DNA of 64,000 nucleotides from Turneriella sp. (GTDB lineage Bacteria; Spirochaetota; Leptospiria; Turneriellales; Turneriellaceae). Position 1 is the first letter of the stretch. Every line of letters begins with the position of its first letter. The stretch spans positions 2,080,001 to 2,144,000 of the forward strand of contig CBDIID010000003.1 of assembly GCA_965279515.1 (NCBI GenBank), given 5' to 3'. The position numbers and the translations under genes are program-made. Below are positions 12,563-34,499 of the stretch, piece after piece. The notes below the pieces were generated by a model. It ran no database searches. It worked only from the letters and a program-made list of their open reading frames with translations, and was not told the DNA's origin.

Positions 12563-15500
12563 TTATCCTCCGGCGTTGGCGGCAGGCGCACTGTAAACGC
12601 TGGCCTCGTCAGAGATGCGCTGAAAAAATTCCGGAATATTGATACGCCGGTTTTTGATTTCGTCGGGCGAAGCGGCAAGGTAACCGAAGAATTTCTTACT
12701 CATCGGAATATCCGAATAGACGAAACCATCCCTGAAAACAATGTCCATTTTTTTAGGCACGGTCGTGTTCGCGGCCAATGTATTTACAAGGCCCGAACTC
12801 TTTGGCATGACCGCCTTCATTACTGTATCGGCAAATTCAGGCCCGATTCTGAAAATCGAAATATAACCATTGAGGTTTTCGATAGGTTTATCCAGCCTGT
12901 TCCCCGTAAAAAGCATGTCGATTCTGAGCTTGCCATCGGTAATATTTTCTGCCTTTTCCTTAAGCAACAGCGGCTTTAAATCAATATCTTTGATCTGGAT
13001 AGTCGACGAATATTCCATCTCGCTGGGTCGCAGTCTCCCCAAATTGAACAATGTGTCTGAAATGGTGACGACGCCGTTCAACGTATACATCTGCATTACG
13101 GGCATCACGAAGACATTATCTTTGTACTCCATCGATGCACCGACAGCCGGATAGTTGCCGCGGGGATAAACAAGATTGAGCCATTCTTTTTTATTGTTCG
13201 GATCGGGAATATCAATGCCCGCTATAGAAAAATTGTATTCGCGGTTAAAATTATAGTTCTTTATAATGTGCTCTTTGTTCCCTGCGCGGAGATTCAGCGT
13301 CTTTTTCAGCTTTAGGTCGTGCCTGAACGGAAATATCATGTTGACCTTGTTTATGCGTACGTCCTTATTGCGAAAACTGAGATCTTCGATCTTAATTTTT
13401 CCGTTGACGATAGTGTCCTTGGCTGTACCTGCCAGCGAAAAAACACCGACGAGAAAAGTATCATCGAGAATTTCACTTTCTTCTTTTTTAGAAAGCTCAA
13501 TCTTAAACCGCATATCGGGCACCGGAACGGTGACGCGCCGCTCGCGGCCTGTTTTCGGATCGGTCTCGATATCGACCCCCTGCCGAAGCGCACCGTCGAG
13601 AGAAACCAGCAAAGCCTGCCTGAGCCCCGTGATGGTAAACTGGTCGAGGTAAGTTACCGCGGGGGTCAGGCGCGTCTTAGCGTTAATCACGATATCATCC
13701 AAATGGATGTCAGGAAAAGCGACGTGTGTTGTATGAACAACGGCGGTTTCACCACCCGCAATCGTCACCGCCGTTTCGCCGTCGGCCCTCATGGTGCGCC
13801 CCGGGCTTACGGCGGCGATCTGTGTGCCAATCGTCTCTTGGAGCGCCACCGGCATACTCAGAACCAGAGCCTTAAAACCAATCGTCAACGCATCGAGATT
13901 GTAATTCACTTTGATGCCCTGTGTTTTCTCAATCGTCACGCGCGATTTGAGTTCGACCGCAGGGTTATAATCTTTGTCTTTATCGGTAAATGCAATCACC
14001 GGCAGATTGACCGAGATCTGCTTGAAATCCTCGCTACTCTTAACCGCGCCTTTAACATTGAAATCGATGCGATTGACGCCGGATTTACCCCGGTCAACAA
14101 AATAATATAACTGCGGCGAGAATACGCGCAGGGCAATGGCAAGATTTTGGGGAGATTCGCCGATGGCGCTGAAAGTCGTATTGATCTGGCCCTGGGCATT
14201 GCCCGACGCAAAGGGTGTTAAGTCAAAGCCGCGCAGCGAGAAATTCACTGCGGTCTTTTTCTCTTCGAGCGATGCGTCGAGACCGACACCGGCACCGTTG
14301 ATCACACCCTTGAGTTTTGCTTCTGCTTTTTTAATGGGCAGCGGCTTTCTTTTCTGATCGACAAATGCCGCATGATCAAACTCGAGGGTGGGAATCGAAA
14401 TGTTGAGGTTCCCCTTTCGTACCTGAACACGCTCAAGCATAATGCCGCCCCGATCGTCGACCGTATCGCCGCGGATGACAACGGTGGTTGGCTTCACCGA
14501 AAAATACCCCGAATAGGAAGGATCGCGCTGACCCGTCAGGCCCGACACAACCCTGAAAACTTCGCCGAGATTCACACGCGAGGCTCCCGTCTGAATATCG
14601 ATGCTACGGCCCGGCGTTAAAACCTTCTCGCCGCTACCGGTAAGCGTAAGCAACGTATCACCCAGAAATTTGATGATAAAATTCCCGATCTTCAAACGAT
14701 CTTCTTTGGCATTATACTCTATCTTGTGATCGACGAGAAAGGATAGATTCTGGGCAGCACGGCCCGCAAGCGCCACAGGGATTTTATCCTGAGCAAAATG
14801 CATATTGGAAACGAACTCAGGCCGCTTAGACTGGCCGTCGTAAAACAGCCGCCAGAACAGGTCGAGCTTTGTACTAACCCGCGCGGGCGGGCCCTGGAAT
14901 GAGATATCGATCGTCTTTTGCGGATTCAGCTCGATCACCAGCGCGTTTAACAGCGCTACCGCATCCGCAGGGTTCCGCGTATCGATTTTATTGAAATCCC
15001 GCGTCAGCAGCGAGAAGTTGAAGTTAAAATTTTTGAGATGCGCATACTGCCGCACCTTATTCGAAGCATCCTGGGCATCGAGTGTGAAGTTAAAATTCTC
15101 CAGAATAAAGCGGGCGAAAATCTGCACGTCAAAGAACCAGGAAACGACGGAGTTATTTCCCGGCGGGGACTCTGGTTCTTCTTTCTCAGGCTCTCTCTTT
15201 TTGGACGGCTTCATCAGCGCCTGCACGCTCATGATATTTTTTTTCTGGTCGATAAAGACCTCGGCGTCTTTAAATGCAATTTCATGCACGCCGAATTTAC
15301 CGCGAAAAAACCCGTAGACGTTATAAAGAAGATTAATCTCGCGCGCCTTGAGTATGGGCGTCTGTTTGAAGCCCGCGGGCGGGTGCACCACGACATTACG
15401 GAACTTAAAACCACGAAACAGCGAGGCCTCCTCTATTTTGATTTCAATTTTTCCGTTGGTATTCTCGGCAAATTGTTTTACGATCAGCGGCTCCAGAAAG

Positions 15501-15655
15501 GATGGCCGCATCACATAATTATAACCGGCAATGATTGTTATAAATACCGCGAGAAAAAAATATCCGGCTACTTTGCGCGTAATCCGGAAGATTTTTGAGA
15601 TTTTCCCCCGCGGCTGGGTCGTCGCTGTCACCTCGCCGTCGGGAAATTGCTGCAT
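12563..15655 (-). CDS. AsmA-like/YdbH-like large envelope protein (N-terminal TM anchor, beta-rich body)
   Basis: 1030 aa with a single N-terminal TM, an AsmA-like N-terminus (IEIKIEEASLFRGFKFRNVVV...ILKAREINL) and long amphipathic beta-strand repeats. Confidence 0.65.
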   Translation of the reverse strand: MQQFPDGEVTATTQPRGKISKIFRITRKVAGYFFLAVFITIIAGYNYVMRPSFLEPLIVKQFAENTNGKIEIKIEEASLFRGFKFRNVVVHPPAGFKQTPILKAREINLLYNVYGFFRGKFGVHEIAFKDAEVFIDQKKNIMSVQALMKPSKKREPEKEEPESPPGNNSVVSWFFDVQIFARFILENFNFTLDAQDASNKVRQYAHLKNFNFNFSLLTRDFNKIDTRNPADAVALLNALVIELNPQKTIDISFQGPPARVSTKLDLFWRLFYDGQSKRPEFVSNMHFAQDKIPVALAGRAAQNLSFLVDHKIEYNAKEDRLKIGNFIIKFLGDTLLTLTGSGEKVLTPGRSIDIQTGASRVNLGEVFRVVSGLTGQRDPSYSGYFSVKPTTVVIRGDTVDDRGGIMLERVQVRKGNLNISIPTLEFDHAAFVDQKRKPLPIKKAEAKLKGVINGAGVGLDASLEEKKTAVNFSLRGFDLTPFASGNAQGQINTTFSAIGESPQNLAIALRVFSPQLYYFVDRGKSGVNRIDFNVKGAVKSSEDFKQISVNLPVIAFTDKDKDYNPAVELKSRVTIEKTQGIKVNYNLDALTIGFKALVLSMPVALQETIGTQIAAVSPGRTMRADGETAVTIAGGETAVVHTTHVAFPDIHLDDIVINAKTRLTPAVTYLDQFTITGLRQALLVSLDGALRQGVDIETDPKTGRERRVTVPVPDMRFKIELSKKEESEILDDTFLVGVFSLAGTAKDTIVNGKIKIEDLSFRNKDVRINKVNMIFPFRHDLKLKKTLNLRAGNKEHIIKNYNFNREYNFSIAGIDIPDPNNKKEWLNLVYPRGNYPAVGASMEYKDNVFVMPVMQMYTLNGVVTISDTLFNLGRLRPSEMEYSSTIQIKDIDLKPLLLKEKAENITDGKLRIDMLFTGNRLDKPIENLNGYISIFRIGPEFADTVMKAVMPKSSGLVNTLAANTTVPKKMDIVFRDGFVYSDIPMSKKFFGYLAASPDEIKNRRINIPEFFQRISDEASVYSAPAANAGG

Positions 15656-19865: not shown

Positions 19866-19981
19866 AATTCCCGCGTCCGATCCCAGGTTTTCAAACGTAA
19901 TTTATAGGTTGCAGCCCATGTTTATTCCGATAAACCTGCACCAGTTTGGGAAACCCAAATAATATCACAGGAGACACACTA

Positions 19982-20443
19982 ATGAAGAAATTCCAATTTC
20001 TCTCTCGATTGGCCATCGCAGCGGTTTTCGTTGCCGGCGCATCCGCTTTTGCCGACGCCAAAGCAGATGCTAAAGCAGAACGCCGCGCGGCAGCCATCGC
20101 CGAAGTAAAACAGCTTTTAGCTGATTTGACCGGCGAAACCAACAAGCTGAACGATGCACTCGTTGCGGCACAAAAAGGCAAAGAAGTGGTTCAGGCACTC
20201 GACGCATGGGCAAACGCTCTCGACGCTTTCAAAAAAAAGGCGAAAGCCCTGGAATCCAAAAAAGGCTTTAAATTCCTGAAGAAGAAAGAACCACCAGAAG
20301 AAATCAAACCCGACCTCGAAGCATTCATGACATCCGTACAAACAATGTCAGGCAACCTGCAGACAAAAGTGGAACTGTTCAAAGAAAATCCAAAGTTCCA
20401 GAAGCGCATGCAGCAAGTTCTCGCAAAGCTGAAAGATCTCTAA
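19982..20443 (+). CDS. Hypothetical secreted all-helical protein
   Basis: SD GGAGA before ATG 19982, signal peptide MKKFQFLSRLAIAAVFVAGASAFA, Lys/Ala-rich helices. Confidence 0.75.
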   Translation: MKKFQFLSRLAIAAVFVAGASAFADAKADAKAERRAAAIAEVKQLLADLTGETNKLNDALVAAQKGKEVVQALDAWANALDAFKKKAKALESKKGFKFLKKKEPPEEIKPDLEAFMTSVQTMSGNLQTKVELFKENPKFQKRMQQVLAKLKDL

Positions 20444-20449
20444 AACAAC

Positions 20450-20495
20450 TTGCGGGTCGCGGGCCAAAAACCCGCGCGCCGCAAAACTATTTTTC
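20450..20495 (+). terminator. Probable intrinsic terminator
   Basis: Imperfect GC stem ttgcgg-gtcgcggg/cccgcg-cgccgcaa just after the stop, followed by a T-rich stretch. Confidence 0.5.
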
Positions 20496-20573
20496 CCGAT
20501 TTAGTATTAATTCCGTTCTCCTTTCCCGCACATTTTAGTTTACACACTCTCTCCCGCTCATGTGCTGTTAGGC

Positions 20574-22157
20574 ATGTCAGACGCTGATCAGTACGTTCTT
20601 GCCATCGATTTGGGTACCTCTGGCCCCAAAGTCGCGATTGTCAGCGAGAGCGGCAAGGTCCTGCACTGCGAAGTCGAAGCAACTGAACTCATTCTGCTTG
20701 ATGGCGGCGGCGCCGAGCAAGACCCCGATGACTGGTGGCAAAAGATCTGCGCCGCGTCAAAAAGACTCATCGCCAAAAATCTCGTTCCACTCGATCGCAT
20801 CACTTCTGTCGCCGTTACTTCGCAGTGGTCGGGTACCGTTGCCGTCGATAAATCCGGCAAACATCTCTATAATTCGATCATTTGGATGGATTCCCGCGGC
20901 GCAAAACATGTCGCGCAGGTCATGGACGGCCTCGTCAAATTCCAGGGCTATGACGTCGTCAAGCTCGCGCAGTGGATTCTGCTCACCGCGGGCATGCCTG
21001 GCCTCTCGGGCAAAGATTCGCTCGCCCATGTGCTCTTCATCAAAAATGAAATGCCCGATCTCTACGCGAAGACCTACAAATTTCTCGAACCGAAAGATTA
21101 CCTGAACCTGCGTCTCAGCGGCAAATTTGCTGCTGCTCAGGATTCGATCGCCCTCCACTGGGTTACCGACAACCGCGATCTCAGCAAGGTCCACTACCAT
21201 CCCGGGCTGATACAGACGACCGGCCTCGATGTGAAAAAACTCCCCGATCTCTACAGTTCGACCGATGTGCTGGGAAAAATCTTACCCGATGTCGCCCGTG
21301 AGCTCGGCATCTCTGAGAGCACGATGGTGGTTATGGGTACGCCGGATGTCCAGTCTGCGGCGCTGGGTTCGGGTGCTGTTGAAGATTATGCCGCGCACCT
21401 GTACATCGGTACATCCTCATGGCTCACCTGCCACGTGCCGTTCAAGAAGACATCAGCCGAATACAACATGGCAACGATTCCCTCGGCCGTACCGGGCAGA
21501 TACCTCGTCGGCAATGAACACGAAACCGCGGGGTATTGCCTCACCTACCTGCGCGATAAAATCTTTTATCCCAAAGATGCCATCACACCCGAAGGCGCCC
21601 CGAAAGATGCTTACCAGAAATTCAACGATCTCGCCGCAACGATCGCTCCGGGCAGCGACAAACTGATTTTTACGCCGTGGCTCATCGGCGAACGCACACC
21701 GGTAGAAGACCACACGATACGCGGCGGCTTCTTCAATATGTCGCTCTCAACGACGCGCGCACACATGGTGCGTGCGGTCTTTGAAGGCGTGGCCTACAAC
21801 TCGCGCTGGTTACTTGACGCCGTCGAAGATTTTATCGGCCGCAAGATCGAATATATCAACATGATCGGCGGCGGCGCGCGCTCAGACCTCTGGTGCCAGA
21901 TCCACGCCGACATTCTCAACCGCGAAATACGCCAGGTTGCCGACGCCGTCGAAGCAAATGTGCGCGGTGTCGCATTACTTGCAGGGGTCTCGCAAGGGCG
22001 CTTTAAATTCAAAGACCTTTCGAGCCGCGTGGCAATCGCAAAAACGTATAAACCGATCGCCGCAAACCGCAAGATTTACGACGAGCTTTATACCGAATTT
22101 AAGAATGTCTACACCGCTCACAAGAAAATACATGAGAGAATGAATAAAACACATTAG
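20574..22157 (+). CDS. FGGY-family carbohydrate kinase (xylulokinase-like)
   Basis: LAIDLGTSGPK, AEQDPDDWW, IIWMDSRG, YIGTSSW, PWLIGERTP, RAVFEGVA, IGGGARSDLWCQI. Likely start ATG 20574. Confidence 0.92.
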   Translation: MSDADQYVLAIDLGTSGPKVAIVSESGKVLHCEVEATELILLDGGGAEQDPDDWWQKICAASKRLIAKNLVPLDRITSVAVTSQWSGTVAVDKSGKHLYNSIIWMDSRGAKHVAQVMDGLVKFQGYDVVKLAQWILLTAGMPGLSGKDSLAHVLFIKNEMPDLYAKTYKFLEPKDYLNLRLSGKFAAAQDSIALHWVTDNRDLSKVHYHPGLIQTTGLDVKKLPDLYSSTDVLGKILPDVARELGISESTMVVMGTPDVQSAALGSGAVEDYAAHLYIGTSSWLTCHVPFKKTSAEYNMATIPSAVPGRYLVGNEHETAGYCLTYLRDKIFYPKDAITPEGAPKDAYQKFNDLAATIAPGSDKLIFTPWLIGERTPVEDHTIRGGFFNMSLSTTRAHMVRAVFEGVAYNSRWLLDAVEDFIGRKIEYINMIGGGARSDLWCQIHADILNREIRQVADAVEANVRGVALLAGVSQGRFKFKDLSSRVAIAKTYKPIAANRKIYDELYTEFKNVYTAHKKIHERMNKTH

Positions 22158-22164
22158 GAACACC

Positions 22165-23706
22165 ATGGATCCACAACTCATTGCCGAATACCAAAAGAAA
22201 TTCCCCGAGGTTTTTGCCTTCGTAGAAGGTATCCTCGAACGCTTTCCCGAGCTCGACCGCTTCATTAAATCACAAGGCATTGTGCGCGACCAGATCGATG
22301 CCCAGGCCAAAGAAGTGCTCGAGACGATCGCAAAAGACATGAAACCTTACCGCGACCAGTACGAGGTCCATGCCCGCTTGCCTAAAGAAGGTGTCGCGCG
22401 GCCTGAAGTCCTGAAAGAGCTCAAAGAGATGCGCGATCTAGAGCGTAAAAAATGGAAAGAAGGCTACGTATCGGGCGCTGTCTACCACGGCGACGATGAG
22501 CATATCGAGTATATGAATAACGCCTACACGATACATTCGCAGTCGAATCCCCTGCACTCCGATCTCTGGCCCAGCGCCAGCAAGTTCGAAGCGGAGATCA
22601 TTTCGATGACCGCCGGCATGCTCAGTGAAGGTGCTCCCGAAAGCGTGCGCGCAGGTATCTGCGGTTCGGTATCTTCTGGCGGTACCGAGAGCATCCTTTT
22701 GGCGATGAAAACCTACCGCGATATGGCTTTTGAGGAGCGCGGTGTGCGCAATCCGGAAATGGTGTTGCCGACAACTGCACACGTGGCATTCCACAAAGCG
22801 GCACAATATTTTAAGATCAAGATTCGCTACGTAAACTTTGACAGCAATTTCCGGGCGAACCTCGACGAAGTCAGAAAAGCGATCAATAGTAATACTGTCG
22901 TCGTCGTTGGCTCAGCACCCGCTTTCCCCCATGGCATTGTCGACCCCATCGAAGAGATGTCCAATCTCGCGCTCTCGAAAAAAATTCCGTTCCACACCGA
23001 CGCCTGCCTCGGCGGCTATATTCTGCCTTGGGCAAAAAAACTCGGCTATGATGTGCCTAAATTCGATTTCTCGCTGCCCGGTGTGACATCGATTTCGGTG
23101 GACACACACAAGTACGGTTACGCAGCGAAAGGCACTTCGGTGATTCTCTACCGCAACGCGAAAATCCGCCACCACCAGTTCTTTACCTCAACTAACTGGC
23201 CGGGGGGGATGTACTTCTCACCCACATTCGCCGGTTCACGCCCGGGCGGCCTTTCGGCCGCATGCTGGGCGGCGCTGGTTTCGATCGGTGAAAAGGGTTA
23301 TCTCGACGCTGCGAAAAAAATCATGACAGCCGCCGATTACGTCAAAGCCGAAATCAAAAAAATTCCCGAACTGAAACTCCTCGGCAACCCGCTCTATGTC
23401 ATCGCCTTTGCGTCAGACACCATAGACATCTACAAGGTCATGGAACAGATGACGCATAAGGGTTATTCACTCAACGGTCTGCATCGCCCTGCCTGTGTGC
23501 ATATTGCACTCACACTGCGCCATGCAGAACCCGGTGTAGCAGAACGTTTCATCGAAGACCTCAAGGCTGCCGTAGCTTATGTGAAAGCAAACCCTTCCGA
23601 AAAGGGCAGCTCGGCACCGATCTACGGCATGGCTGCATCACTGCCGGTGCGCAGCGTCGTCGGCGATTTACTGAAAACTTATATGGACGCTTATTATAAA
23701 GTGTAA
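22165..23706 (+). CDS. Sphingosine-1-phosphate lyase-like PLP-dependent enzyme
   Basis: GYVSGAVYHG, SNPLHSDLWP, SGGTESILLA, SAPAFPHGIVDPIE, HTDACLGG, SISVDTHKYGYAAKG (PLP Lys), PTFAGSRPGG, APIYG. Confidence 0.9.
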   Translation: MDPQLIAEYQKKFPEVFAFVEGILERFPELDRFIKSQGIVRDQIDAQAKEVLETIAKDMKPYRDQYEVHARLPKEGVARPEVLKELKEMRDLERKKWKEGYVSGAVYHGDDEHIEYMNNAYTIHSQSNPLHSDLWPSASKFEAEIISMTAGMLSEGAPESVRAGICGSVSSGGTESILLAMKTYRDMAFEERGVRNPEMVLPTTAHVAFHKAAQYFKIKIRYVNFDSNFRANLDEVRKAINSNTVVVVGSAPAFPHGIVDPIEEMSNLALSKKIPFHTDACLGGYILPWAKKLGYDVPKFDFSLPGVTSISVDTHKYGYAAKGTSVILYRNAKIRHHQFFTSTNWPGGMYFSPTFAGSRPGGLSAACWAALVSIGEKGYLDAAKKIMTAADYVKAEIKKIPELKLLGNPLYVIAFASDTIDIYKVMEQMTHKGYSLNGLHRPACVHIALTLRHAEPGVAERFIEDLKAAVAYVKANPSEKGSSAPIYGMAASLPVRSVVGDLLKTYMDAYYKV

Positions 23707-23794
23707 GTGTCCCCACCCCCTGCCCCTCCCCGCATGCGGGGAGGGGAGCATGGGGGCCTCCCCCGTTTACGGGGGAGGTTGGGAGGGGGACACT
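23706..23794. repeat. GC-rich REP/MITE-like palindromic element (two inverted hairpin units inside 9-bp terminal IRs)
   Basis: AGTGTCCCC (23706-14) / GGGGACACT (23786-94). Perfect 24-bp palindrome at 23723-23746. 10-bp stem CCTCCCCCGT-TT-ACGGGGGAGG at 23757-23778. Confidence 0.8.
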
Positions 23795-24723
23795 GAAGCC
23801 GCATCAGCCCTTAAAACGCCCGTTTTGGAAAAAACGCCTCGCGACTTCTTGAATTCCACACCGTCGCCCTCGCCGAGCAGCAGCATATAGTCGCTGCGGC
23901 CTGAGATCGCAATCGAGTCTTTGATCATTTCCATTTCGCGGCCGCCGCGGCGGTAGAAGGTGCTGTGATGTATGGGTATCATGTAACGTGCGCCGCAGTC
24001 GCGGTAGATCTGCAGAGCTCCATAAGGATTCACATGCACGGCATTGCCAATACCCCCTGAAGTAAAACCTCCTGCTGGTCCTACGGGAATTAACGCAACG
24101 TCGATTTTATAATCGCGCTTGAGATTACGGAAATATTCTTCATGGTAACCGGTGTCGCCGGCAAAGAATACCGTGATGCCTTTGTATTCAATGATATAGC
24201 CGGTATAGGGTTCGCCATCCCACAGATTATCGACCAGCATGCGCCCGCCAAAATGCCGCACCGGTACAGAGGTGATTTTCAGACCATTTTCTTCGTGCGA
24301 ATAGCCCGGGCTTGCGGGATGCTCATGACGGGCCACGGAGTGCGGTGTATAATTAAAACCGCTCGGTGGCGCGAACAAGTGCCCCGAGCCGCGCAGCACA
24401 CGCAGCGAAGGCGCGTCGAGATGATCGAAATGGTTGTGCGAGATGACAATCGCATCGACGGGTTTGACCGAGGCGACATCGATGCCAGGCTCGCTGAGAC
24501 GTTTGACAACTGTGCCGGTACGGTCTGAAAAATTCGGGTCGGTGATAATCCACTTATCGTAGAGGCGCATCAGCACCGTCGCATGCCCCACCCAGTAAAA
24601 CTCAATCTTCTCAGGCGCTGAGACCAGCTGCGGTGCGGGTTTACCGGTTTTGACAGTGCCCGAAAAATTGCCGCAGGCGGCCAGAAACGTCAAAAACAGA
24701 GGAGGCCAGCAAAGGTTGCGCAT
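23767..24723 (-). CDS. Metallo-beta-lactamase-fold hydrolase lipoprotein (NAPE-PLD/RomA-like)
   Basis: Lipobox FLAAC, WVGHAT, ITDPNFS, ISHNHFDHLD, FFAGDTGY, MIPIHHSTF. Confidence 0.88.
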   Translation of the reverse strand: MRNLCWPPLFLTFLAACGNFSGTVKTGKPAPQLVSAPEKIEFYWVGHATVLMRLYDKWIITDPNFSDRTGTVVKRLSEPGIDVASVKPVDAIVISHNHFDHLDAPSLRVLRGSGHLFAPPSGFNYTPHSVARHEHPASPGYSHEENGLKITSVPVRHFGGRMLVDNLWDGEPYTGYIIEYKGITVFFAGDTGYHEEYFRNLKRDYKIDVALIPVGPAGGFTSGGIGNAVHVNPYGALQIYRDCGARYMIPIHHSTFYRRGGREMEMIKDSIAISGRSDYMLLLGEGDGVEFKKSRGVFSKTGVLRADAASVSPSQPPP

Positions 24724-24765
24724 ATTGTCTAGACGCAAATATAACAAAAATATTGTATCGGGAAC

Positions 24766-25818
24766 TTATTCGATGCCGATCCGCTGTTCACCGCCATAGC
24801 GGTAAAAGCCTTCGGTCTCTTCCTGGGCAATAGTCTCGGCTTCGGCGCCGAAATATTTCTTCCTTAATGCATCCAGCGCTGCCGCGTCACCGGCAACCTT
24901 CGACCGTTCGGTAAGGTAGGTTTTGCCCTGTGCCCAACGCGACTCGCGGTCGCGGTCGAGTGTCTCCCAGCGTTCGAGCGTCACAGCATCCATGCCCATT
25001 TCGGTGCGCACGGTCCGAAGCGCATGCCGCTGCTGTGTGGGAGAGAGGGCCTTGAGGTCGGCCTGAACCGATTGCAAGAGTGAATTCGTGATTTCCTGCT
25101 GGTGGCGTTCGAGGTAGGCCCTGGCTTCGGCGCCAAAAGTTTCGTTGAGGGTATTTTTGAAATAGCTCAGCTTGGCGTTGATATCCTTCCCCTTCGCATC
25201 GCGTATCTCTTCGAGGGCGTTCTGCATGGTCGTCGCCCTGATCTCGGCGGCGAAAATTTCTTTTGCGTTATCGTCGCCGAATAAACTGGTGCGCATTTCG
25301 GCCAAAGCCTTTTGCCGATCCTTGCGGCTCATCTTGTCGAGCCGGTCTTTGTTGCGCGTGAGCCAGTCGTTGTATTTGACCAGCGATGACAGCTGATCGA
25401 AAAGTTTATTGGCCAGATTCGGGAATGCGGCGCCCGCAAGTTCGTTCACGCAGGCGACCCAATCATTGGGTTGTTCCTTCTGGCAGAGCCGCATGAGATC
25501 TTCGAGCATCTTGATCTGCAGATAGCCGCGGTGGATATTCTTACCCCACTTCTCGCGCAACAGGGCAATTTTCTGTTCGAATGTCAGCTCACCGACGATG
25601 CGCTTCTGGCCCGTCTCCGTAAGTTCGTATTGGATTTTTTCAATCGCCGATTCCTGGTAGGCGCGTATTGCGCGTGGGTGGCTTTGCAGATTTTTTAGCT
25701 GGCGAATAGCGTCGGAATCGCGGTTAGCGAAATAGAAAATGACCGCCCCGACTAACAGGCCGCCCATAATACCAAGCCAAATGGATTTATTCTTCACGGG
25801 GGTTGTTAAGGGGGCCAC
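24766..25818 (-). CDS. Probable lipase-specific foldase (Lif/LimK-like chaperone)
   Basis: Directly downstream of the lipase. N-terminal TM, all-helical, with Lif-like segments MRTSLFGDDNAKEIFAAE, ERWETLDRDRESRW and LRKKYFGAEA. Confidence 0.7.
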   Translation of the reverse strand: MAPLTTPVKNKSIWLGIMGGLLVGAVIFYFANRDSDAIRQLKNLQSHPRAIRAYQESAIEKIQYELTETGQKRIVGELTFEQKIALLREKWGKNIHRGYLQIKMLEDLMRLCQKEQPNDWVACVNELAGAAFPNLANKLFDQLSSLVKYNDWLTRNKDRLDKMSRKDRQKALAEMRTSLFGDDNAKEIFAAEIRATTMQNALEEIRDAKGKDINAKLSYFKNTLNETFGAEARAYLERHQQEITNSLLQSVQADLKALSPTQQRHALRTVRTEMGMDAVTLERWETLDRDRESRWAQGKTYLTERSKVAGDAAALDALRKKYFGAEAETIAQEETEGFYRYGGEQRIGIE

Positions 25819-25830
25819 AGGCCCCCTTAA
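25806..25830 (-). promoter_or_regulatory. Perfect 11-bp hairpin covering SD and GTG start of the foldase gene
   Basis: Minus strand TTAAGGGGGCC-TGT-GGCCCCCTTAA, beginning 5 nt after the lipase stop. Confidence 0.65.
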
Positions 25831-25835
25831 TCTAA

Positions 25836-26933
25836 TTAGTCTTTCGCCGCGACAAAGTCAATGATCGCCGCGTAGAATTCCATCTCGTCGAATGTGTCAG
25901 GCGGAACGCCCACCACATCGAGATGATCCTGGTTGATGATACTCGAGCTCGATGTCATCTGGATCGACGTCGGGTTATTGAGATCAGACACATAACCTGT
26001 TGTAGAATCCTGGGTGATGTAATCGAGGCAGAGTGTGCATGAATTGTGTTTCAGGCGATAACCCATCTGCTGCGAGTTGATACCGACCAGACCGTCGTCG
26101 TCGAGATCTGTCGCCGTACCGTTACCCTTGCCGGCAGCACCATCGTTGTCGCAGTCATCCACACAATAGCCGTTGCCATCGATGTTGATGAAACCATTAC
26201 GCAGCAAGAACAGCGCCGGGTTCACCGAAACACCTGTCTGTGCTGTGACGAACGAACCGTAGTACGCCGCGTACGTTGCACTGACGGGGTTCGCCACGTT
26301 GAAAGCTTTCGCCCCCGTGGTCACTCCGTCTGTTGCACTGTAGTCGTTATACACGAGCTGCTTCGCACCTGCAAAGGCATCGCTGCCGCTGCGGTAGATG
26401 GTGTTTCCGTAAATCGTTGCCAAAGCCGCCACGACATTCGTGACGCCGGGCTTCAGGTCGAGAATATACTTCGCGACGGGTGATCCGCGGTGGGGAGAAG
26501 AAACAGAAATCAACACTTTGACTACCTGGCGGCCTTTACGTTGGTAAAGAACCTTTGCCGCCTTGCGGATATCCAAACCGCCCTGCGAATGCCCCACGAG
26601 GTTGATGTAACTCACACCCTGCGAAGTCATATACGATTCAATCTGGTTCGCGATGTCGAGACCGCGTACTTCGGAGGACTGAAAAGCGTATGTCGCTGTC
26701 TGGTAAGCCTTTTGCGAGCTGCTTATATTACCGTTGCAGGTAATTTCGAGAAACTCATCACAAGGATCGCCGACAAAAACACCGTAGTCATCCCCCCAAT
26801 AGGAATAGCCCAGAATGTCGTCAAAACCCGCCATGCCATGGGCGAAGACCACCGGGTATGTGGTTTTCGCGGCCGCTGCTGAAACTGCCGCAGGAACTGC
26901 GGCAAAAAGGAATGCGATCAACATTTTTCGCAT
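25836..26933 (-). CDS. Secreted triacylglycerol lipase (family I-like alpha/beta hydrolase)
   Basis: Signal peptide, TTYPVVFAHGMAGF, NLVGHSQGG (nucleophile elbow), SVSSPHRGS, DDGLV, QDHLDVVG. Cys-rich insertions. Confidence 0.93.
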   Translation of the reverse strand: MRKMLIAFLFAAVPAAVSAAAAKTTYPVVFAHGMAGFDDILGYSYWGDDYGVFVGDPCDEFLEITCNGNISSSQKAYQTATYAFQSSEVRGLDIANQIESYMTSQGVSYINLVGHSQGGLDIRKAAKVLYQRKGRQVVKVLISVSSPHRGSPVAKYILDLKPGVTNVVAALATIYGNTIYRSGSDAFAGAKQLVYNDYSATDGVTTGAKAFNVANPVSATYAAYYGSFVTAQTGVSVNPALFLLRNGFINIDGNGYCVDDCDNDGAAGKGNGTATDLDDDGLVGINSQQMGYRLKHNSCTLCLDYITQDSTTGYVSDLNNPTSIQMTSSSSIINQDHLDVVGVPPDTFDEMEFYAAIIDFVAAKD

Positions 26934-28418: not shown

Positions 28419-31400
28419 ATGGAAGTTTTTGGGCGCGGCAGGCGAGTCTTTCGCCCCGTTTTTACGGGGTTTATTATTGTCACATTTGCCGCGTCGTGTT
28501 CCTTCCTTAAACTAGACAAAGATAAGAACTGCCTGAACGAGACCTCGGGCTGTTTTAAGCCTGATAAGACCCCACCTAAACTTGCCCAGGCAATTCCAGA
28601 CCCGGCGCAGAACGTCAACGCGCTGCCAACAGTAGACCTGGTCTTCTCCGAAGAGCCCAAAGACGGTGATAACATCAATAACTACACGCTTGATAAATCA
28701 GGGGGGGCCGTTAACATGCAGCTGCTCTCCGTCGAGAAGGTGAACAGCAACACCTATCGATTGCGCTTTGGTGGATCCGTCAACAACGGCCCCATTACCA
28801 TTGGCTTTGCGGCACTCCGGGACTATGGCGGCAATTCGATGAGCAATCCGGCCATGGTTACCTATACAGGTAACGTTACGATGAGTGTCGATATCACCGT
28901 CGACGGCGACCGCAAAGGTGTCAGCCCAGCAGGCTACCCTAACGTGGTCATGCACTTCAAGCATAACTATTACACCGATGCCAGCAATAACTGGGATATC
29001 CGCTCTGTATCAGGCTCTGTCGCCGATTGTGCACTGGGCACGTCGATCAACAGCGGAACGGGGCTGCCAAACTCACAGACTATCGATCAGACAATTTTGC
29101 AGGCCTCATTCGCGAACGGACAGAACATGATCGTGGTCTGTGTGAAAAATACCGTGAATCCCGCGGCGCAAGCGGTTGGCTACTGGCCGATACTTAAACC
29201 CACAGCTACGTTTACGTGGAATATTACTCCACCCAATGATAGCAGTTTCCGCGACCCCGTTGCCGTCAGCGTCACATGCGGCCCGAATAAAGACAAGATA
29301 ATTATGCGGTCCGCCGTGCAGCAAAACACGAATCCCGCAGACCCTAACCCGCTGCCTTCTTTCAATGCCGACGGCTCCATCAATAACGGTTCGCTTTATG
29401 CCGCGGGACTCATGGCAGAAAATCCCGCAAATCCCACACACAGCAAATTCAGTTTCAGTTGCATCGACATCGCGGGCAGAATAAGCACGCCCCCTTTGGC
29501 TGCTTATCATTATTATATCGACAATACGATACCGGCCGTGAACATGCTGCCCGACCCCAACTATCACGATTTCATTTCATCGGTCGTGGGCTCTTTTAAC
29601 ACCACGACGCTGAAATTCAGCACAGACCAAACGAGCAAAACTTATAACATAAGGAAGGGCGGAACTACCTGCGACTTGGGTGGTGACGGCACACTCATTA
29701 CCTCCGGAACCACAGACCCCACTCCGGGAAATCCAACATCGGTCATACTCGATACCAGTACCGCAAACCATTTCACCACTGCGAACACCACGTACGATGT
29801 GCGTGTCTGCATTGCTGGCACGGGTGTTTCATGGGGCATGGCCTACCTGCAAATTACGCGCGATGACAATGTGCCGACGATTACGCCTAACATCGTCGGT
29901 GGCTCGTACGGGGTCATACAGAGTGTTCTTTTCACATGTACTGATAACCAGAGTATCATGGGTTATGAAAGTACGGAACTGGCAGGCTCCACAGCCCCTG
30001 TCGCACCCTCCGGCCCTGTTTATTCGGGAGGCACTTTTCCGTTGCCGGGTAAGGAATTCACTGGAACATTTACGCCGACGGATGCCAGCACGACCATTAT
30101 CCGTTATATGTGCGTCGACAAAGCCAACAATAAATCCACGATTGGCCAGCAGCAATACAGAGTTGATTCAACCCTGCCGAATGTTAACCTTGTCAGCAAT
30201 GAGCGCACCTCGCTCAGCGGTAACGCGGGTGCATACGCAACGTCGCAGCTCATTTGGAACTCGACAAGAGGATCGCTCCCCTATGAGATCCGGCGTTCCG
30301 GTAACTGCAATGGCGGTCCTGCCGGCGATGCGGCGAACACCATTCTCTCCGGTACGACCCCGGTATCCGTAAGCGGGGTTTATCCCAATGTCATCTCTAC
30401 GCTGACGGCGGCAATGTTTCCCACAAATGCGGTAACCTATAACCTGAAGATATGTGTTTTCAATTACCTCGGTACGCCCAGCTATCAGCCCACAGCGCTC
30501 TCTGTACTCCGGGATGATGGCTATCCAACCTTCGCAGGGCTTACTGCGATCGCATCGACCGGTGGGGCAAATTTCACCGTGAGCTGGAATGCCGCTACGG
30601 ATGCAAACTCCGGACCTGCCTTTTACAACATCTACATAGCCACCGCTCCGGGAGGACCATACAATACTGTCAGTTATACCGCAGCGCATCCCGCCACGAG
30701 CATCAATATCACGGTACCGAATCCAGCGCAGACATACTATCTCATCGCCGGAGCCGTGGATATCGCCGGCAACGAAACCAAGGTCACCGCAGCAGAACTT
30801 TCGTCAAAACCCACCATCACCCTCGTCGTTGCGGGACTCGATACCGCAAACAGCAAGACATTCAGCCTGACCGACGGCAGCGCCTCCCAAACCATTACCA
30901 CAAATGCAACGAGCACATGGGCAACGACGCTCGGCATGAATGCGACCTATAACTTTCAGATTACCGCGCAACCTGTCGGCCAGGTCTGCGGCATAAGACA
31001 AAAACAATTCGGTGCATTGGTTTCTGACCTCACTGTCAACGTCGACTGCACGAACGGCCAGATGGTCGCCGGCCGTTTCCAGCAGGTAAAAGCTTCGAAT
31101 GTCAGCTACATGCTTTACCGCGCATCGAGTACGGCGCTAGCCTCGTCGCAGACCAACCCTACATCACTGATCTATGCCGCGGGTTATATCTTTTACGGAA
31201 ACTACGCCGACTGCGATGGCGGCACTCCGGGAAATCAGTATTGCCTTTTCAAAGTTCCTGCAACATCGGGCTCCGTGGCGACGCATGTTACAGGGATAAC
31301 GGCACCGGTACGCGGTGTAACTACCGACGGCACGAGTATTTATTACAGTGTCGAATCACCCAACAATGGAATATACAAAGTCCCTATCGCAGGCGGAACT

Positions 31401-34400
31401 TCTACCTTGCTGACAAATGCGATCACTTCACCATATGGCATCGCCACGGACGGCAATTATCTCTATGTCTGTGGGGCCGGTGCTCTGACGATTCGCCGCA
31501 TTGACCTTGCTACCGGAACAATCGCAGATATCGCGGGTCCATTGGCAAATTATCCGCTGGGTATCGAAGTCGTCGGCACCGATCTTTATTTTACCACATG
31601 GGGTACGCACGCGATCTACAAGGTGCCCAAATCAGGCGGATCACCCACGGTGGTCTTTGGCAGCTCCGGAACTTCGGGCATGCAGGACGGCAATGGAACC
31701 GGCGCACTCTTAAATCAGCCGCACGACCTTGTCTACGACGGCGTCGATAACCTGTACTTCGCAGAGTACGGCGGCAACCGCATGAAAAAGGCCAAACTCT
31801 CGACGGGCAGGGTGATTACACTTTTAGGCGATGGCTCGGCAGCCTTCTCGCTGGGCGGAGGCGCCTCCGCCAAGGTGCAAAATCCCGTTGGCATCACCAG
31901 CGACGGCAAACGTATCTTTCTGAGTAACCATAACGCCGGTTCGAGCGTGGTGCGTATCGCCGATCAAAATAATGTCGGCTACTGGCCACTCAATGCCCAG
32001 CCCTCTGACTTCAGTAGCGATGGTTTCAACGGATCTTTCGATATGACGCCGACCGGCAGCCATACGGTAGTACCGGGTCGTTACAACGAAGCGAACGGAG
32101 CTTATCGCTTTGATGGCTCCTCGACCTGGTTTTCGACCCCACACCAAAACCAGTTCAATCTGAGCAGTGCCTATACGATTAGCGCGTGGATCAACACCAA
32201 CAGCACAGCAAGCCAGCGTATCGTCGACAAGACTACTGCAGGTGCAGCCAACGGCTATGTACTCGATATCGTCTCTAACCGTTATCGCCTGATCCATGGC
32301 GTATCGGTATCGACCGAATTGGTCTCTAACAGCATAGTGACGACGGGCACGTGGGTGCAAGTGCTCGCGACATATTCACAGCTGGAAAAACGCGCGCGCA
32401 TCTATATCAACGGCCACCTCGACGCCGAGCAAATTTTCGGCACTTCTGCTTCGACACCCAGCAATACCCTGGCGCTGCGCATCGGCTCAGATTCCAATAA
32501 TGCCAATGTATTCAGCGGCGCGATGGCGGCTGTACGGATTTATGGCCGGGTTCTCAACGATGCCGAAATCAATGAACTTGCGCAGGATGCAAGCCCAGCC
32601 CAGGTCGGTAACTCCTACAATACCGGTCCCACAGAAGCCGCAGTTATTTTCCAGTTTACCGGCGGCACTGCAGGGAATGCAAATATGACAAGCTCCGGCC
32701 CATCGGGTAACGGGCTTACTCCCTTATGCAGCAGCCCGATCGGCAAGGATGGGGATGCAGCTGGTTCTTGTTATCTTGACGGTAACAACAACCTCGTTAC
32801 CTCAAGTGGCGGCAGCGCGGGAACTCCATGGGGTAGCGCCCCGCGTACCCTTTGCATCTGGTTCAATCCACAGCGGATTCCCGCCAATGACGTGCTCATC
32901 GCCCATGGAAACCCGGTAGCTCCCAATTTCCGCGGCTTTGGCATTACGCTGCTCAACGGTGCGCAGATCCAGTTTTTCAACTGGGGCGGACCGAATGTGG
33001 TCTACAATTATCCGGTTCAACTCAACACGTGGCAGCATGTCTGTGGCACAGCGACGGGGAACACGGTTGAAATGTTCATGAACGGCGCATCTCTCGGCGC
33101 GAATAGCGGCGGCATCGGAACCTTAAATACGGTGAATGACGCCGGATCGGTATTATCTCTGGGTTCGGCACTCGACGGAAATTCTGCCTTGATGTTCCAG
33201 GGCACCATCGACGATGCGCGCATCTATAATAAAGTTCTTACCGCGGCGGAAATCCGCCAGTTGGCCACGCAAGTACCGACGGGACTTGTTGCGCGCTATG
33301 ATTTCAACGGGGACACGAACGATGTCAGCGGCCTGGGGAATAATCTGACCAATAGCGGCGCGACTGCCAGCACCGATCGTTTCGGCATACCAAACGGGGC
33401 CTATCGTTTCAACGGTGCGAATAACCTCATGATAAATTCTTCGACCTCGCTGCCGTTTGCCACGGGCAACTTCGACAGAACAATGTGCTTCTGGGGGCGC
33501 GCCGATCAGGCCCTCAGCGGCGTCCGCATCGGCGTCGCTTATGGCAACAGCTCTACGAATCAGACCTCTCAGATCGGTTTCAACACCCTTAACACCAGTT
33601 CGCCTACAACGTTAGGCTGCGCCTATGGTGCGCCGTGTTCGCCGGCGGGATACATCCACCAGAATACATGGCACCATGTATGTATGGTTGTCAACGCGAC
33701 CAACGCACAAATGTACCTGAATGGCGGCACTCTTGACACCAATGGCGCCGGCGCTGGCACCACTGTTTCTGCAACCGCCTGGAATACACCGGCGGGTCCC
33801 CTTGTCATCGGCAGCTTCAACGGGCAATACTGGTTTCCCGGCGACATGGATGATATCCGGATTTACAACCGTGCGCTTTCGGCTACCGAGATTCAGGCTC
33901 TCGTACAGCAGCCGAACAAAAGGATCTATGTCACAGCGAACACTTACAGCGGTGATCTTAGAAATGGTGGCGCAGGCACAGGTGTGGCAGGCGCTGATAT
34001 CAAGTGCAACGCCGCAGATGCAAATAAGCCAGCGACGGGTGTTTATAAAGCGATGCTTGGCGATGGTTTGAATCGTCGCGCTTGCACCTCGGGTTACTGT
34101 GCAAGCGGTGGAGTCACGGAGGGTATCGATTGGGTACTGAGACCCAATGTAACTTACACAACCAGTGGGGGTACGCTTCCCATCTTTACCGCTGACTGGA
34201 ACGGTTCCTGGAACTTCCTCGGAGCCGCCCCCACAGGTGGAAACTTTCTTAATGCGGTCAGCGCTACAGCTGTGACGCCATGGACGGGAATGACATTTAA
34301 CTGGAGTACCGATGCGGCTTGTGGTCACTGGGATGGCATTGCCACATCGGATGATAAGGGAGTCTTTGGGCGTGCGAATTCCACGTCCCAGCCAGCGAGC

Positions 34401-34499
34401 ACCGGGGGCGTACTCTATGAATTGTGGACGGGCAACACGACGGGAACCATGGTGTCTTGCCTGGCTTCCTCGTATCCGCTCTACTGCGTCGAGCAGTAG
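28419..34499 (+). CDS. Giant surface lipoprotein 1 (Ig-like/Fn3 stalk, NHL propeller, 3 LamG, C-terminal DUF1554/Len-like domain)
   Basis: Lipobox FAAS-C27, DKTPP..FSEE Ig domain, CIDIAG/CVDKAN modules, SWNAATD Fn3, NHL repeats (PYGIATDG, PVGITSDG), three RIY..L..EI LamG ends, tip GADIKCN..YKAML..DWVLRPN..LYCVEQ. Confidence 0.9.
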   Translation: MEVFGRGRRVFRPVFTGFIIVTFAASCSFLKLDKDKNCLNETSGCFKPDKTPPKLAQAIPDPAQNVNALPTVDLVFSEEPKDGDNINNYTLDKSGGAVNMQLLSVEKVNSNTYRLRFGGSVNNGPITIGFAALRDYGGNSMSNPAMVTYTGNVTMSVDITVDGDRKGVSPAGYPNVVMHFKHNYYTDASNNWDIRSVSGSVADCALGTSINSGTGLPNSQTIDQTILQASFANGQNMIVVCVKNTVNPAAQAVGYWPILKPTATFTWNITPPNDSSFRDPVAVSVTCGPNKDKIIMRSAVQQNTNPADPNPLPSFNADGSINNGSLYAAGLMAENPANPTHSKFSFSCIDIAGRISTPPLAAYHYYIDNTIPAVNMLPDPNYHDFISSVVGSFNTTTLKFSTDQTSKTYNIRKGGTTCDLGGDGTLITSGTTDPTPGNPTSVILDTSTANHFTTANTTYDVRVCIAGTGVSWGMAYLQITRDDNVPTITPNIVGGSYGVIQSVLFTCTDNQSIMGYESTELAGSTAPVAPSGPVYSGGTFPLPGKEFTGTFTPTDASTTIIRYMCVDKANNKSTIGQQQYRVDSTLPNVNLVSNERTSLSGNAGAYATSQLIWNSTRGSLPYEIRRSGNCNGGPAGDAANTILSGTTPVSVSGVYPNVISTLTAAMFPTNAVTYNLKICVFNYLGTPSYQPTALSVLRDDGYPTFAGLTAIASTGGANFTVSWNAATDANSGPAFYNIYIATAPGGPYNTVSYTAAHPATSINITVPNPAQTYYLIAGAVDIAGNETKVTAAELSSKPTITLVVAGLDTANSKTFSLTDGSASQTITTNATSTWATTLGMNATYNFQITAQPVGQVCGIRQKQFGALVSDLTVNVDCTNGQMVAGRFQQVKASNVSYMLYRASSTALASSQTNPTSLIYAAGYIFYGNYADCDGGTPGNQYCLFKVPATSGSVATHVTGITAPVRGVTTDGTSIYYSVESPNNGIYKVPIAGGTSTLLTNAITSPYGIATDGNYLYVCGAGALTIRRIDLATGTIADIAGPLANYPLGIEVVGTDLYFTTWGTHAIYKVPKSGGSPTVVFGSSGTSGMQDGNGTGALLNQPHDLVYDGVDNLYFAEYGGNRMKKAKLSTGRVITLLGDGSAAFSLGGGASAKVQNPVGITSDGKRIFLSNHNAGSSVVRIADQNNVGYWPLNAQPSDFSSDGFNGSFDMTPTGSHTVVPGRYNEANGAYRFDGSSTWFSTPHQNQFNLSSAYTISAWINTNSTASQRIVDKTTAGAANGYVLDIVSNRYRLIHGVSVSTELVSNSIVTTGTWVQVLATYSQLEKRARIYINGHLDAEQIFGTSASTPSNTLALRIGSDSNNANVFSGAMAAVRIYGRVLNDAEINELAQDASPAQVGNSYNTGPTEAAVIFQFTGGTAGNANMTSSGPSGNGLTPLCSSPIGKDGDAAGSCYLDGNNNLVTSSGGSAGTPWGSAPRTLCIWFNPQRIPANDVLIAHGNPVAPNFRGFGITLLNGAQIQFFNWGGPNVVYNYPVQLNTWQHVCGTATGNTVEMFMNGASLGANSGGIGTLNTVNDAGSVLSLGSALDGNSALMFQGTIDDARIYNKVLTAAEIRQLATQVPTGLVARYDFNGDTNDVSGLGNNLTNSGATASTDRFGIPNGAYRFNGANNLMINSSTSLPFATGNFDRTMCFWGRADQALSGVRIGVAYGNSSTNQTSQIGFNTLNTSSPTTLGCAYGAPCSPAGYIHQNTWHHVCMVVNATNAQMYLNGGTLDTNGAGAGTTVSATAWNTPAGPLVIGSFNGQYWFPGDMDDIRIYNRALSATEIQALVQQPNKRIYVTANTYSGDLRNGGAGTGVAGADIKCNAADANKPATGVYKAMLGDGLNRRACTSGYCASGGVTEGIDWVLRPNVTYTTSGGTLPIFTADWNGSWNFLGAAPTGGNFLNAVSATAVTPWTGMTFNWSTDAACGHWDGIATSDDKGVFGRANSTSQPASTGGVLYELWTGNTTGTMVSCLASSYPLYCVEQ

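Follow-up and report, generated by a model that had tools for sequence, protein, structure and literature searches.

A conserved FGGY kinase and sphingosine-1-phosphate lyase gene pair in Turneriella: a candidate route for sphingoid-base breakdown

The gene pair and its two products

The window, that is, the whole stretch of DNA analysed here, covers 64,000 nucleotides (nt) of Turneriella sp. (GenBank assembly GCA_965279515.1, contig CBDIID010000003.1, positions 2,080,001 to 2,144,000 of the forward strand), from a genome of 4.9 Mb that is 99.99% complete. It contains a gene for an FGGY-family kinase directly followed by a gene for a homologue of sphingosine-1-phosphate (S1P) lyase, a pyridoxal-phosphate (PLP) enzyme, and the same two genes stand side by side in at least seven bacterial phyla. 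The closest named relatives are Turneriella metagenome-assembled genomes (MAGs), with 74–76% identity in the kinase and 83–86% in the lyase. A first-pass annotation, made from the letters of the DNA, had read the two genes as a co-oriented pair 7 bp apart, and this arrangement is confirmed (Table 1). It had further proposed that the pair provides a two-step route in which the kinase phosphorylates sphingoid bases and the lyase cleaves the resulting 1-phosphates.

Table 1. Features of the kinase–lyase locus, in positions of the window (aa, amino acids; MBL, metallo-beta-lactamase)
Feature	Position	Strand	Description
Hairpin followed by a T-rich stretch	20450..20484	+	Between the upstream gene (19946..20443) and the kinase gene
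FGGY-family kinase, 527 aa	20574..22157	+	ATG start; FGGY_N and FGGY_C domains; predicted C1-hydroxyl kinase of a 2-amino-1,3-diol
Intergenic spacer, 7 nt	22158..22164	+	AGGA overlapping the kinase stop codon
Sphingosine-1-phosphate lyase homologue, 513 aa	22165..23706	+	PLP lysine K316
GC-rich palindromic hairpin	23706..23759	.	Between the convergent lyase and MBL-fold genes; -38.3 kcal/mol, z -2.6

The second protein carries the Pfam domains Pyridoxal_deC (PF00282, 61.5 bits) and Aminotran_5, with no predicted N-terminal membrane helix noted. Among solved structures, it matches the S1P lyase of Symbiobacterium thermophilum (StSPL, 3MAD) with 610 bits across lyase residues 50–513, followed by human SGPL1 (4Q6R, 436 bits), the Burkholderia enzyme (5K1R, 407 bits) and yeast Dpl1p (3MC6, 405 bits). 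Decarboxylase structures score far lower, with 90 bits for MfnA and 64 bits for GAD, and the MfnA model TIGR03812 reaches 228.4 against a cut-off of 299.4. These scores, together with the residues specific to S1P lyases described below, rule out the amino-acid decarboxylase identity considered for this enzyme and uphold the lyase assignment of the first-pass annotation. By its matches and residues, the protein is a genuine S1P-lyase homologue (EC 4.1.2.27), belonging to the fold-type I PLP enzymes and resembling group II decarboxylases.

Structurally, 13 residues that a review (PMC6148460) lists for StSPL were mapped by hand on the structure alignment, in which the StSPL chain index equals the UniProt number plus 1, and were checked in the translation. 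All 13 catalytic, PLP-binding and phosphate-binding positions are kept in the window lyase. Specifically, the PLP cup is formed by G173, T174, H315 and S358 (StSPL G168, T169, H310 and S353), the PLP sandwich by C281 and H206 (StSPL C276 and H201), and the Schiff-base lysine is K316 (StSPL K311), accompanied by a second lysine, K322 (StSPL K317). The substrate-phosphate pocket comprises A105, Y107, N128 and H131 (StSPL A103, Y105, N126 and H129), where H129 is our own reading of the His198 (yeast numbering) given in PMC6148460. The last position is the pocket tyrosine Y487 (StSPL Y482), and the same review assigns Y482 to accommodating the substrate in a hydrophobic pocket. StSPL itself (PDB 3MAD, 3MAF and 3MAU; gene STH1274) thus has the same PLP lysine, PLP-binding, substrate-phosphate and hydrophobic-pocket residues as the window lyase. 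The two proteins are also alike in being soluble and lacking the membrane helix found in eukaryotes, and they differ in the N-terminal 50 residues of the window lyase, which find no alignment in StSPL. According to the study that describes it (PMC3148216), StSPL cleaves S1P in vitro and in blood, and its natural role is called unknown by its authors.

The first protein contains FGGY_N (PF00370, 140 bits) and FGGY_C (PF02782, 101 bits) and lacks a DAGK_cat domain (PF00781). Its best solved structure is E. coli XylB (2ITM, 147 bits), with which it shares the two-domain FGGY architecture, the N-terminal phosphate-binding motif DLGTSG (D12 and T15) and the catalytic aspartate, D258 being aligned to D233 of XylB. 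The sugar-binding loops of XylB are altered in the window kinase, which reads QWSG for QMHG and, around the catalytic aspartate, GTPDV for GGGDN. Moreover, the window kinase falls below the curated cut-offs of the XylB model TIGR01312 (285.5 against 380.25) and of NF011601 (174.3 against 912). Its host also has no match to the xylose isomerase model TIGR02630, which is matched in 5 of 14 control genomes, and the only other FGGY gene of the genome is GlpK (705 bits). Relatives at 57–60% identity occur in many phyla, mostly labelled as xylulokinase or FGGY-family carbohydrate kinase. An alignment of 12 rows shows a mean column identity of 72% with long invariant motifs, including HWVTDNR and PFKKT; the structure model built from this alignment has a mean pLDDT (predicted local distance difference test) of 65.9, with residues 85–171 and 187–229 below 50. 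By these comparisons the kinase is assigned to a distinct FGGY subfamily outside the xylulokinase equivalog. It may resemble sphingosine kinases in role, while not being a member of the DAGK_cat family.

The pair likely forms a two-gene transcription unit, since stable hairpins occupy both of its flanks. The hairpin in front of the kinase has a folding energy of -22.9 kcal/mol (z -3.05), an equally good fold being found in 1 of 200 shuffles, and probably terminates the gene before it, in which case the pair would begin its own transcription unit. The palindromic hairpin behind the lyase is probably a two-way terminator serving both convergent genes. A consensus scan of the stretch for promoters and terminators performs no better than on shuffled sequence, with 4 promoter-like sites against 3.0 and 6 terminator-like sites against 5.6. 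Between the two genes, the AGGA at the kinase stop codon is a likely ribosome-binding site for the lyase. An alternative in-frame GTG start of the kinase lies at 20562; homologue lengths of 525–528 aa favour the ATG.

Conservation of the pairing and a sister module

A kinase-side survey of the best 80 of 588 related loci, with the lyase sought by tblastn, places a lyase next to the kinase in 50 loci from at least seven phyla, including Spirochaetota, Chloroflexota, Thermodesulfobacteriota, Myxococcota, Actinomycetota, Planctomycetota, KSB1 and others. One of the paired loci (L040) comes from Myxococcus sp. For 48 of the 50, both genes share a strand and the kinase comes first, the alignment ends being separated by -6 to 246 nt; the two exceptions are a gap of 833 nt (L016) and a reversed lyase–kinase order with 12 nt between the genes (L066). 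Among the 30 loci without a lyase, 25 extend at least 1500 nt downstream of the kinase, enough to reveal one, and two (L007 and L030) are not assessable. Clustering of all flank open reading frames (ORFs) of the 80 loci yields no other conserved partner. The adjacency is far beyond chance because it recurs in 50 of 80 related loci. The paired lyases are conserved at the mapped positions: in a set of 47 class-A enzymes, consisting of the window lyase, 45 from the loci of the kinase search and one from L092, no variation occurs at 11 of the 13 positions, and each of the other two varies in 2 rows. The hydrophobic-pocket tyrosine is invariant in all 47.

A survey of 301 Spirochaetota genomes, searched from the lyase side, resolves three classes of lyase-like genes. 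Class-A lyases (58–62% identity) occur in 14 genomes, including the one studied here, and the kinase lies directly upstream in all 14. Class-B lyases (47–48%) occur in five genomes of one genus, each with a class-B kinase (43–44%) directly upstream, and this class-B pair is present there in addition to the class-A pair (L093, G223:C46:181000-191000, and four sister genomes). The class-B kinase carries the motif QYFVIV where the window kinase has QWSGTV, and in the phosphate pocket of the class-B lyase position 105 is T and position 131 is Q. These differences in the kinase motifs and at lyase positions 105 and 131 suggest that the class-B pair may act on a different head group. Since the class-B lyase is always accompanied by the class-B kinase, the two genes appear to have diverged together as pairs, and such co-divergence (A with A, B with B) is expected for consecutive steps on one substrate. 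Class-C genes (43–44%, 14 matches) are only lyase-like, and none adjoins a kinase match among the matches listed. The class-C example L096 (G016:C2:241000-252000) has L and N at positions 105 and 131 and reaches 269 bits with the MfnA model against the cut-off of 299. It sits after a DUF819 membrane protein and next to a TetR regulator and an MFS transporter, and no DAGK-type kinase lies beside it at this one locus examined.

Co-occurrence extends to Chloroflexota, where 8 of 151 genomes contain a class-A lyase and the same 8 also contain a class-A kinase (53–59% identity). The pair is adjacent in five of them, one of which (G330) has the lyase before the kinase; in one genome the two genes lie on different contigs, and in two they lie at contig edges. 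In the remaining 143 genomes no kinase reaches 53% identity. The label "lyase next door" was also followed on a kinase tree of 80 rows, which omits L004 and L071 because a stop interrupts their matches and takes the genome's own GlpK as outgroup. This label spans the whole kinase subfamily and requires 9 changes, compared with a mean of 22.6 in shuffles, none of 500 shuffles being as low; relatives are not independent, so that the adjacency and tree figures describe a pattern and are not probabilities. The first-pass annotation had asked for the phylogeny and co-occurrence of this kinase clade with S1P lyases, and on both counts the pairing proves conserved, at 50 of 80 loci, in 14 of 14 and 5 of 5 Spirochaetota genomes and by co-occurrence in 8 of 8 Chloroflexota genomes. 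For a functional coupling of the two enzymes, the support is as strong as genomic context allows.

The same kinase subfamily also participates in a second module, which is absent from this window. Nine of the 30 loci without a lyase (Smithella, Syntrophaceae and other Thermodesulfobacteriota) have, downstream of the kinase, an aminotransferase together with a RuBisCO-like protein and/or a class II aldolase. The class-III aminotransferase is closest to glutamate-1-semialdehyde aminomutases (GSAM, 238 bits), with 109 bits to the fumonisin aminopentol aminotransferase, and the RuBisCO-like protein is closest to the MtnW enolase (309 bits, below the cut-off of 409). All 9 loci encode an MFS transporter, 7 a FucA-like class II aldolase and 7 a TetR regulator. 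The kinases of this sister module share nearly all subfamily motifs with the lyase-linked kinases and form a clade marked 100 on the tree, nested in a clade marked 97 with lyase-linked Desulfobacterales kinases. One Spirochaetota genome (L092) has both modules side by side, in the order kinase, lyase, TetR regulator, kinase, aminotransferase and RuBisCO-like protein. A variant (L094) runs from a TetR regulator through aldolase, aminotransferase and kinase to MFS and adjoins a split transketolase.

Because both alternative downstream enzymes are PLP enzymes acting on amines, we infer that the kinase substrate carries an amine next to the phosphorylated hydroxyl. In the sister module, a 2-amino-3,4-dihydroxy-1-phosphate head would become ketose-1-phosphate-like on transamination, and FucA-like aldolases and MtnW-like proteins use substrates of that type. 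The model for such a module is provided by the L-fucose, L-rhamnose and 5-deoxyribose routes, in which a ketose kinase is combined with a class II ketose-1-phosphate aldolase. The likeness lies in the FucA-like aldolase and/or MtnW-like protein, both from families that act on 2-keto-1-phosphates; unlike those routes, the sister module adds the GSAM-like class-III aminotransferase, implying an amino substrate.

Subfamily kinases (54–55% identity) are also present on contigs labelled uncultured archaeon and Candidatus Helarchaeota (L023, L030 and L079), where binning errors are possible and no lyase lies on the flanks at hand. One of them (L079) has a class-III aminotransferase upstream of the kinase, 50% identical to that of Smithella.

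Candidate substrate and proposed order of the reactions

Independent support for a sphingolipid substrate comes from the links between the pair and ceramidases. In 4 of the 50 paired loci, a gene for a ceramidase or an amidase lies next to the pair. In a Myxococcaceae locus (L045), an ACER-type ceramidase (PF05875) directly follows the lyase and a P450 precedes the kinase; in Haliangium (L055), a divergent neutral ceramidase lies before the kinase; and in two Anaerolineales loci (L032 and L035), the lyase has an amidase-signature enzyme directly behind it, and an alcohol dehydrogenase stands in front. Other neighbours with a lipid flavour occur once each (aldehyde dehydrogenase, acyl-CoA dehydrogenase, enoyl-CoA hydratase, BAAT-type thioesterase, MMPL and MFS transporter), as do the sugar-type neighbours GH3 and polysaccharide lyase, and most of the 119 flank ORFs scanned are unrelated. 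In addition, two Spirochaetota loci (L114 and L115) encode on one strand a neutral ceramidase, an AraC-type sensor-regulator, an FGGY kinase, a class II aldolase, a class-III aminotransferase and an MFS transporter. In a third genome (L116), the ceramidase lies on the strand opposite to a HAD hydrolase, an MFS transporter, the kinase and an AraC-type regulator, and neither the aminotransferase nor the aldolase is among the ORFs scanned there. The parts of these loci are homologous to those of the sister module, with 45–61% identity in the aminotransferase, 41–50% in the aldolase and 39–48% in the MFS transporter. The genome studied here encodes two neutral ceramidases of PF04734 (515 and 512 bits) and two ceramidases of PF05875, and either family occurs in none of 14 control genomes.

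Elsewhere in this genome, a separate cluster (L117, G000:C3:3524000-3541000) comprises an AraC regulator, a neutral ceramidase, a DUF1801 protein, a lactonase-like beta-propeller, a GMC oxidoreductase, an ACER-type ceramidase and a 793-aa cytochrome c protein. It presumably resembles the sphingosine-responsive SphR/CerN/SphBCD genes of Pseudomonas aeruginosa and may represent a second, oxidative route for sphingoid bases.

The conserved phosphate pocket of the lyase, the known lyase chemistry and the aminotransferase alternative of the sister module together make it likely that the kinase substrate is a 2-amino-1,3-diol phosphorylated at C1. That this diol is a free sphingoid long-chain base, which the kinase would hand on to the lyase, is the reading we moderately favour, because StSPL cleaves S1P, the pocket tyrosine does not vary and there are links to ceramidases and amidases. 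In the proposed pathway, ceramidases would release the free base (sphingosine, sphinganine or a bacterial analogue) from ceramide, the FGGY kinase would use ATP to phosphorylate its C1 hydroxyl, and the PLP lyase would cut the C2–C3 bond of the 1-phosphate by a retro-aldol reaction, yielding phosphoethanolamine and a fatty aldehyde for phospholipid and fatty-acid metabolism. The two-step route put forward in the first-pass annotation is partly supported, by the lyase identity, the conserved pairing and the ceramidase links observed here; the kinase substrate, and with it the order of the two reactions, is the part that we infer.

The proposed logic is also that of eukaryotes, with C1 phosphorylation by SPHK1/2 or Lcb4/Lcb5 preceding C2–C3 retro-aldol cleavage by SGPL1 or Dpl1p, and the lyases are homologous. 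To our knowledge, sphingosine kinases are known only from the DAGK fold, so that the window kinase, an FGGY enzyme that would take over the role held by DAGK-fold kinases in eukaryotes, would be a non-homologous replacement. The available text of the review PMC6148460 likewise describes sphingosine kinases only as members of the DAGK family. Unlike the eukaryotic route, the window pair is a predicted operon and its lyase is not membrane-anchored. The comparison suggests a known kinase-then-lyase logic, here apparently with a non-homologous kinase.

Several observations weigh against long-chain bases as the substrate. We know of no FGGY kinase that takes a lipid, the characterised members acting on small polar substrates, and the MFS transporter, RuBisCO-like protein and FucA-like aldolase of the sister module, as well as the split transketolase of L094, look like sugar-phosphate enzymes; both points weaken the reading. 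An amide hydrolase adjoins only 4 of the 50 pairs, the neighbours being mostly unrelated housekeeping genes, and the kinase of the ceramidase-linked module is only about 33% identical to the window kinase and carries different motifs. The ceramidase genes of this genome lie 1.4–1.9 Mb from the pair. Across Spirochaetota, PF04734 is found in only 8 of the 14 genomes with a class-A lyase and also in 47 of the 287 genomes that lack the pair; of these 47, 34 are Leptospira-like and have no lyase. No clear sphingolipid synthesis locus is found in this genome; the alpha-oxoamine synthase L099/L109 (G000:C3:3360399-3361421; 462 aa with an N-terminal extension of about 75–100 aa) scores 279 bits with SPT (3A2B) and 267 with KBL, falls below all NCBIfam cut-offs and has uninformative neighbours. 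Finally, the genome encodes three DAGK_cat proteins that could include the real long-chain-base kinase.

The polar substrates known for FGGY kinases and the sugar-like cast of the sister module (its MFS transporter, MtnW-like RuBisCO-like protein, FucA-like aldolase and GSAM-like aminotransferase, and the transketolase of L094) would also fit a pair with the same roles acting on a small water-soluble 2-amino-polyol, such as a 2-amino-2-deoxy-alditol or a serinol-like compound, with phosphoethanolamine and a short hydroxy-aldehyde as products. Many carriers are, moreover, anaerobes not known for sphingolipid metabolism. The soluble nature of the lyase, which lacks the membrane helix of the eukaryotic enzymes (discussed in PMC3148216), is compatible with a soluble substrate; however, its closest characterised relative, StSPL, cleaves long-chain S1P, the hydrophobic-pocket tyrosine is invariant in 47 of 47 paired lyases, ceramidase or fatty-amide-type hydrolases accompany the kinase at L045, L055, L032, L035 and L114–L116, and we know of no abundant natural small 2-amino-1,3-diol that could serve as such a substrate. 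Taken together, these points leave a small polyol rather unlikely.

Still less probable is a coupling in which the two enzymes do not act as kinase and then lyase, either because the lyase runs in the biosynthetic aldol direction towards an amino-diol phosphate or because the FGGY enzyme acts on another intermediate while a YegS-type kinase makes the base phosphate. One of the three DAGK_cat proteins (L001) does score 174 bits with the YegS/Rv2252/BmrU lipid-kinase model, above its cut-off of 119, and the lyase precedes the kinase in L066 and G330. The DAGK_cat genes are, however, unlinked to the pair, the nearest lying about 140 kb away; according to the review PMC6148460, a reverse reaction of S1P lyase has never been described; and kinase and lyase co-diverge as pairs (A with A, B with B). 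An ordinary xylulokinase or other sugar kinase whose position beside the lyase is meaningless can be set aside almost entirely: its best NCBIfam and PDB matches are indeed xylulokinases and its relatives carry such database names, but it scores below every curated cut-off in a genome without xylose isomerase, chance is ruled out by the adjacency and co-occurrence counts (50/80, 14/14, 5/5 and 8/8), and the tree label changes 9 times against a shuffle mean of 22.6.

Phosphorylation of sphingoid bases by the FGGY kinase would have wider consequences. As a tentative and decidedly less certain extension, the FGGY subfamily might constitute a new, non-homologous class of sphingoid-base kinases feeding two PLP-dependent breakdown routes, through the lyase or through transaminase and aldolase or RuBisCO-like protein, in many bacterial phyla and some archaeal bins; such a widespread sphingolipid-consuming system could explain what soluble bacterial S1P lyases such as StSPL do in nature. 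If the sphingoid-base reading is true, a large family of "sugar kinases" routinely annotated as xylulokinase would gain a new substrate class, and the missing kinase step of bacterial sphingolipid breakdown would be supplied. Free-living and sediment-dwelling microbes, among them relatives of Leptospira, Myxococcus and Anaerolineae, could in that case use a two-enzyme route to recycle the sphingolipids of eukaryotes or Bacteroidota. The link to aminotransferase, aldolase and RuBisCO-like protein would, in turn, give a functional lead for an unassigned RuBisCO-like clade. In full-text searches, with subscription journals outside their reach, no publication turned up that connects an FGGY kinase with S1P lyase or with sphingoid bases.

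Neighbouring genes in the window

Upstream of the pair lie genes for GlyS, a HisZ-like protein, an OsmC-like protein and a 165-aa protein without an assigned family. Downstream and convergent to it are genes for an MBL-fold hydrolase, a lipase-chaperone-like protein and a lipase-like alpha/beta hydrolase. Pfam and NCBIfam scans of the window proteins find no sugar isomerase, epimerase or transporter around the pair, which bears out the corresponding remark of the first-pass annotation.

The convergent three-gene set spans positions 23767–26933 on the minus strand, straight after the lyase. Its MBL-fold hydrolase matches Lactamase_B_2 (100 bits), the lipase-chaperone-like protein stays below the Pfam cut-off, and the alpha/beta hydrolase matches Palm_thioest, PGAP1 and DUF676. 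The MBL-fold hydrolase and the lipase-chaperone-like gene also lie 3' of the lyase in the Turneriella MAG locus L004. Two large proteins of Leptospira type are encoded farther away: a protein of 2026 aa that carries a C-terminal DUF1554 besides three Laminin_G_3 domains (positions 28419–34499, plus strand), and the product of a large gene of the LIC_11026 family (positions 12563–15655, minus strand).

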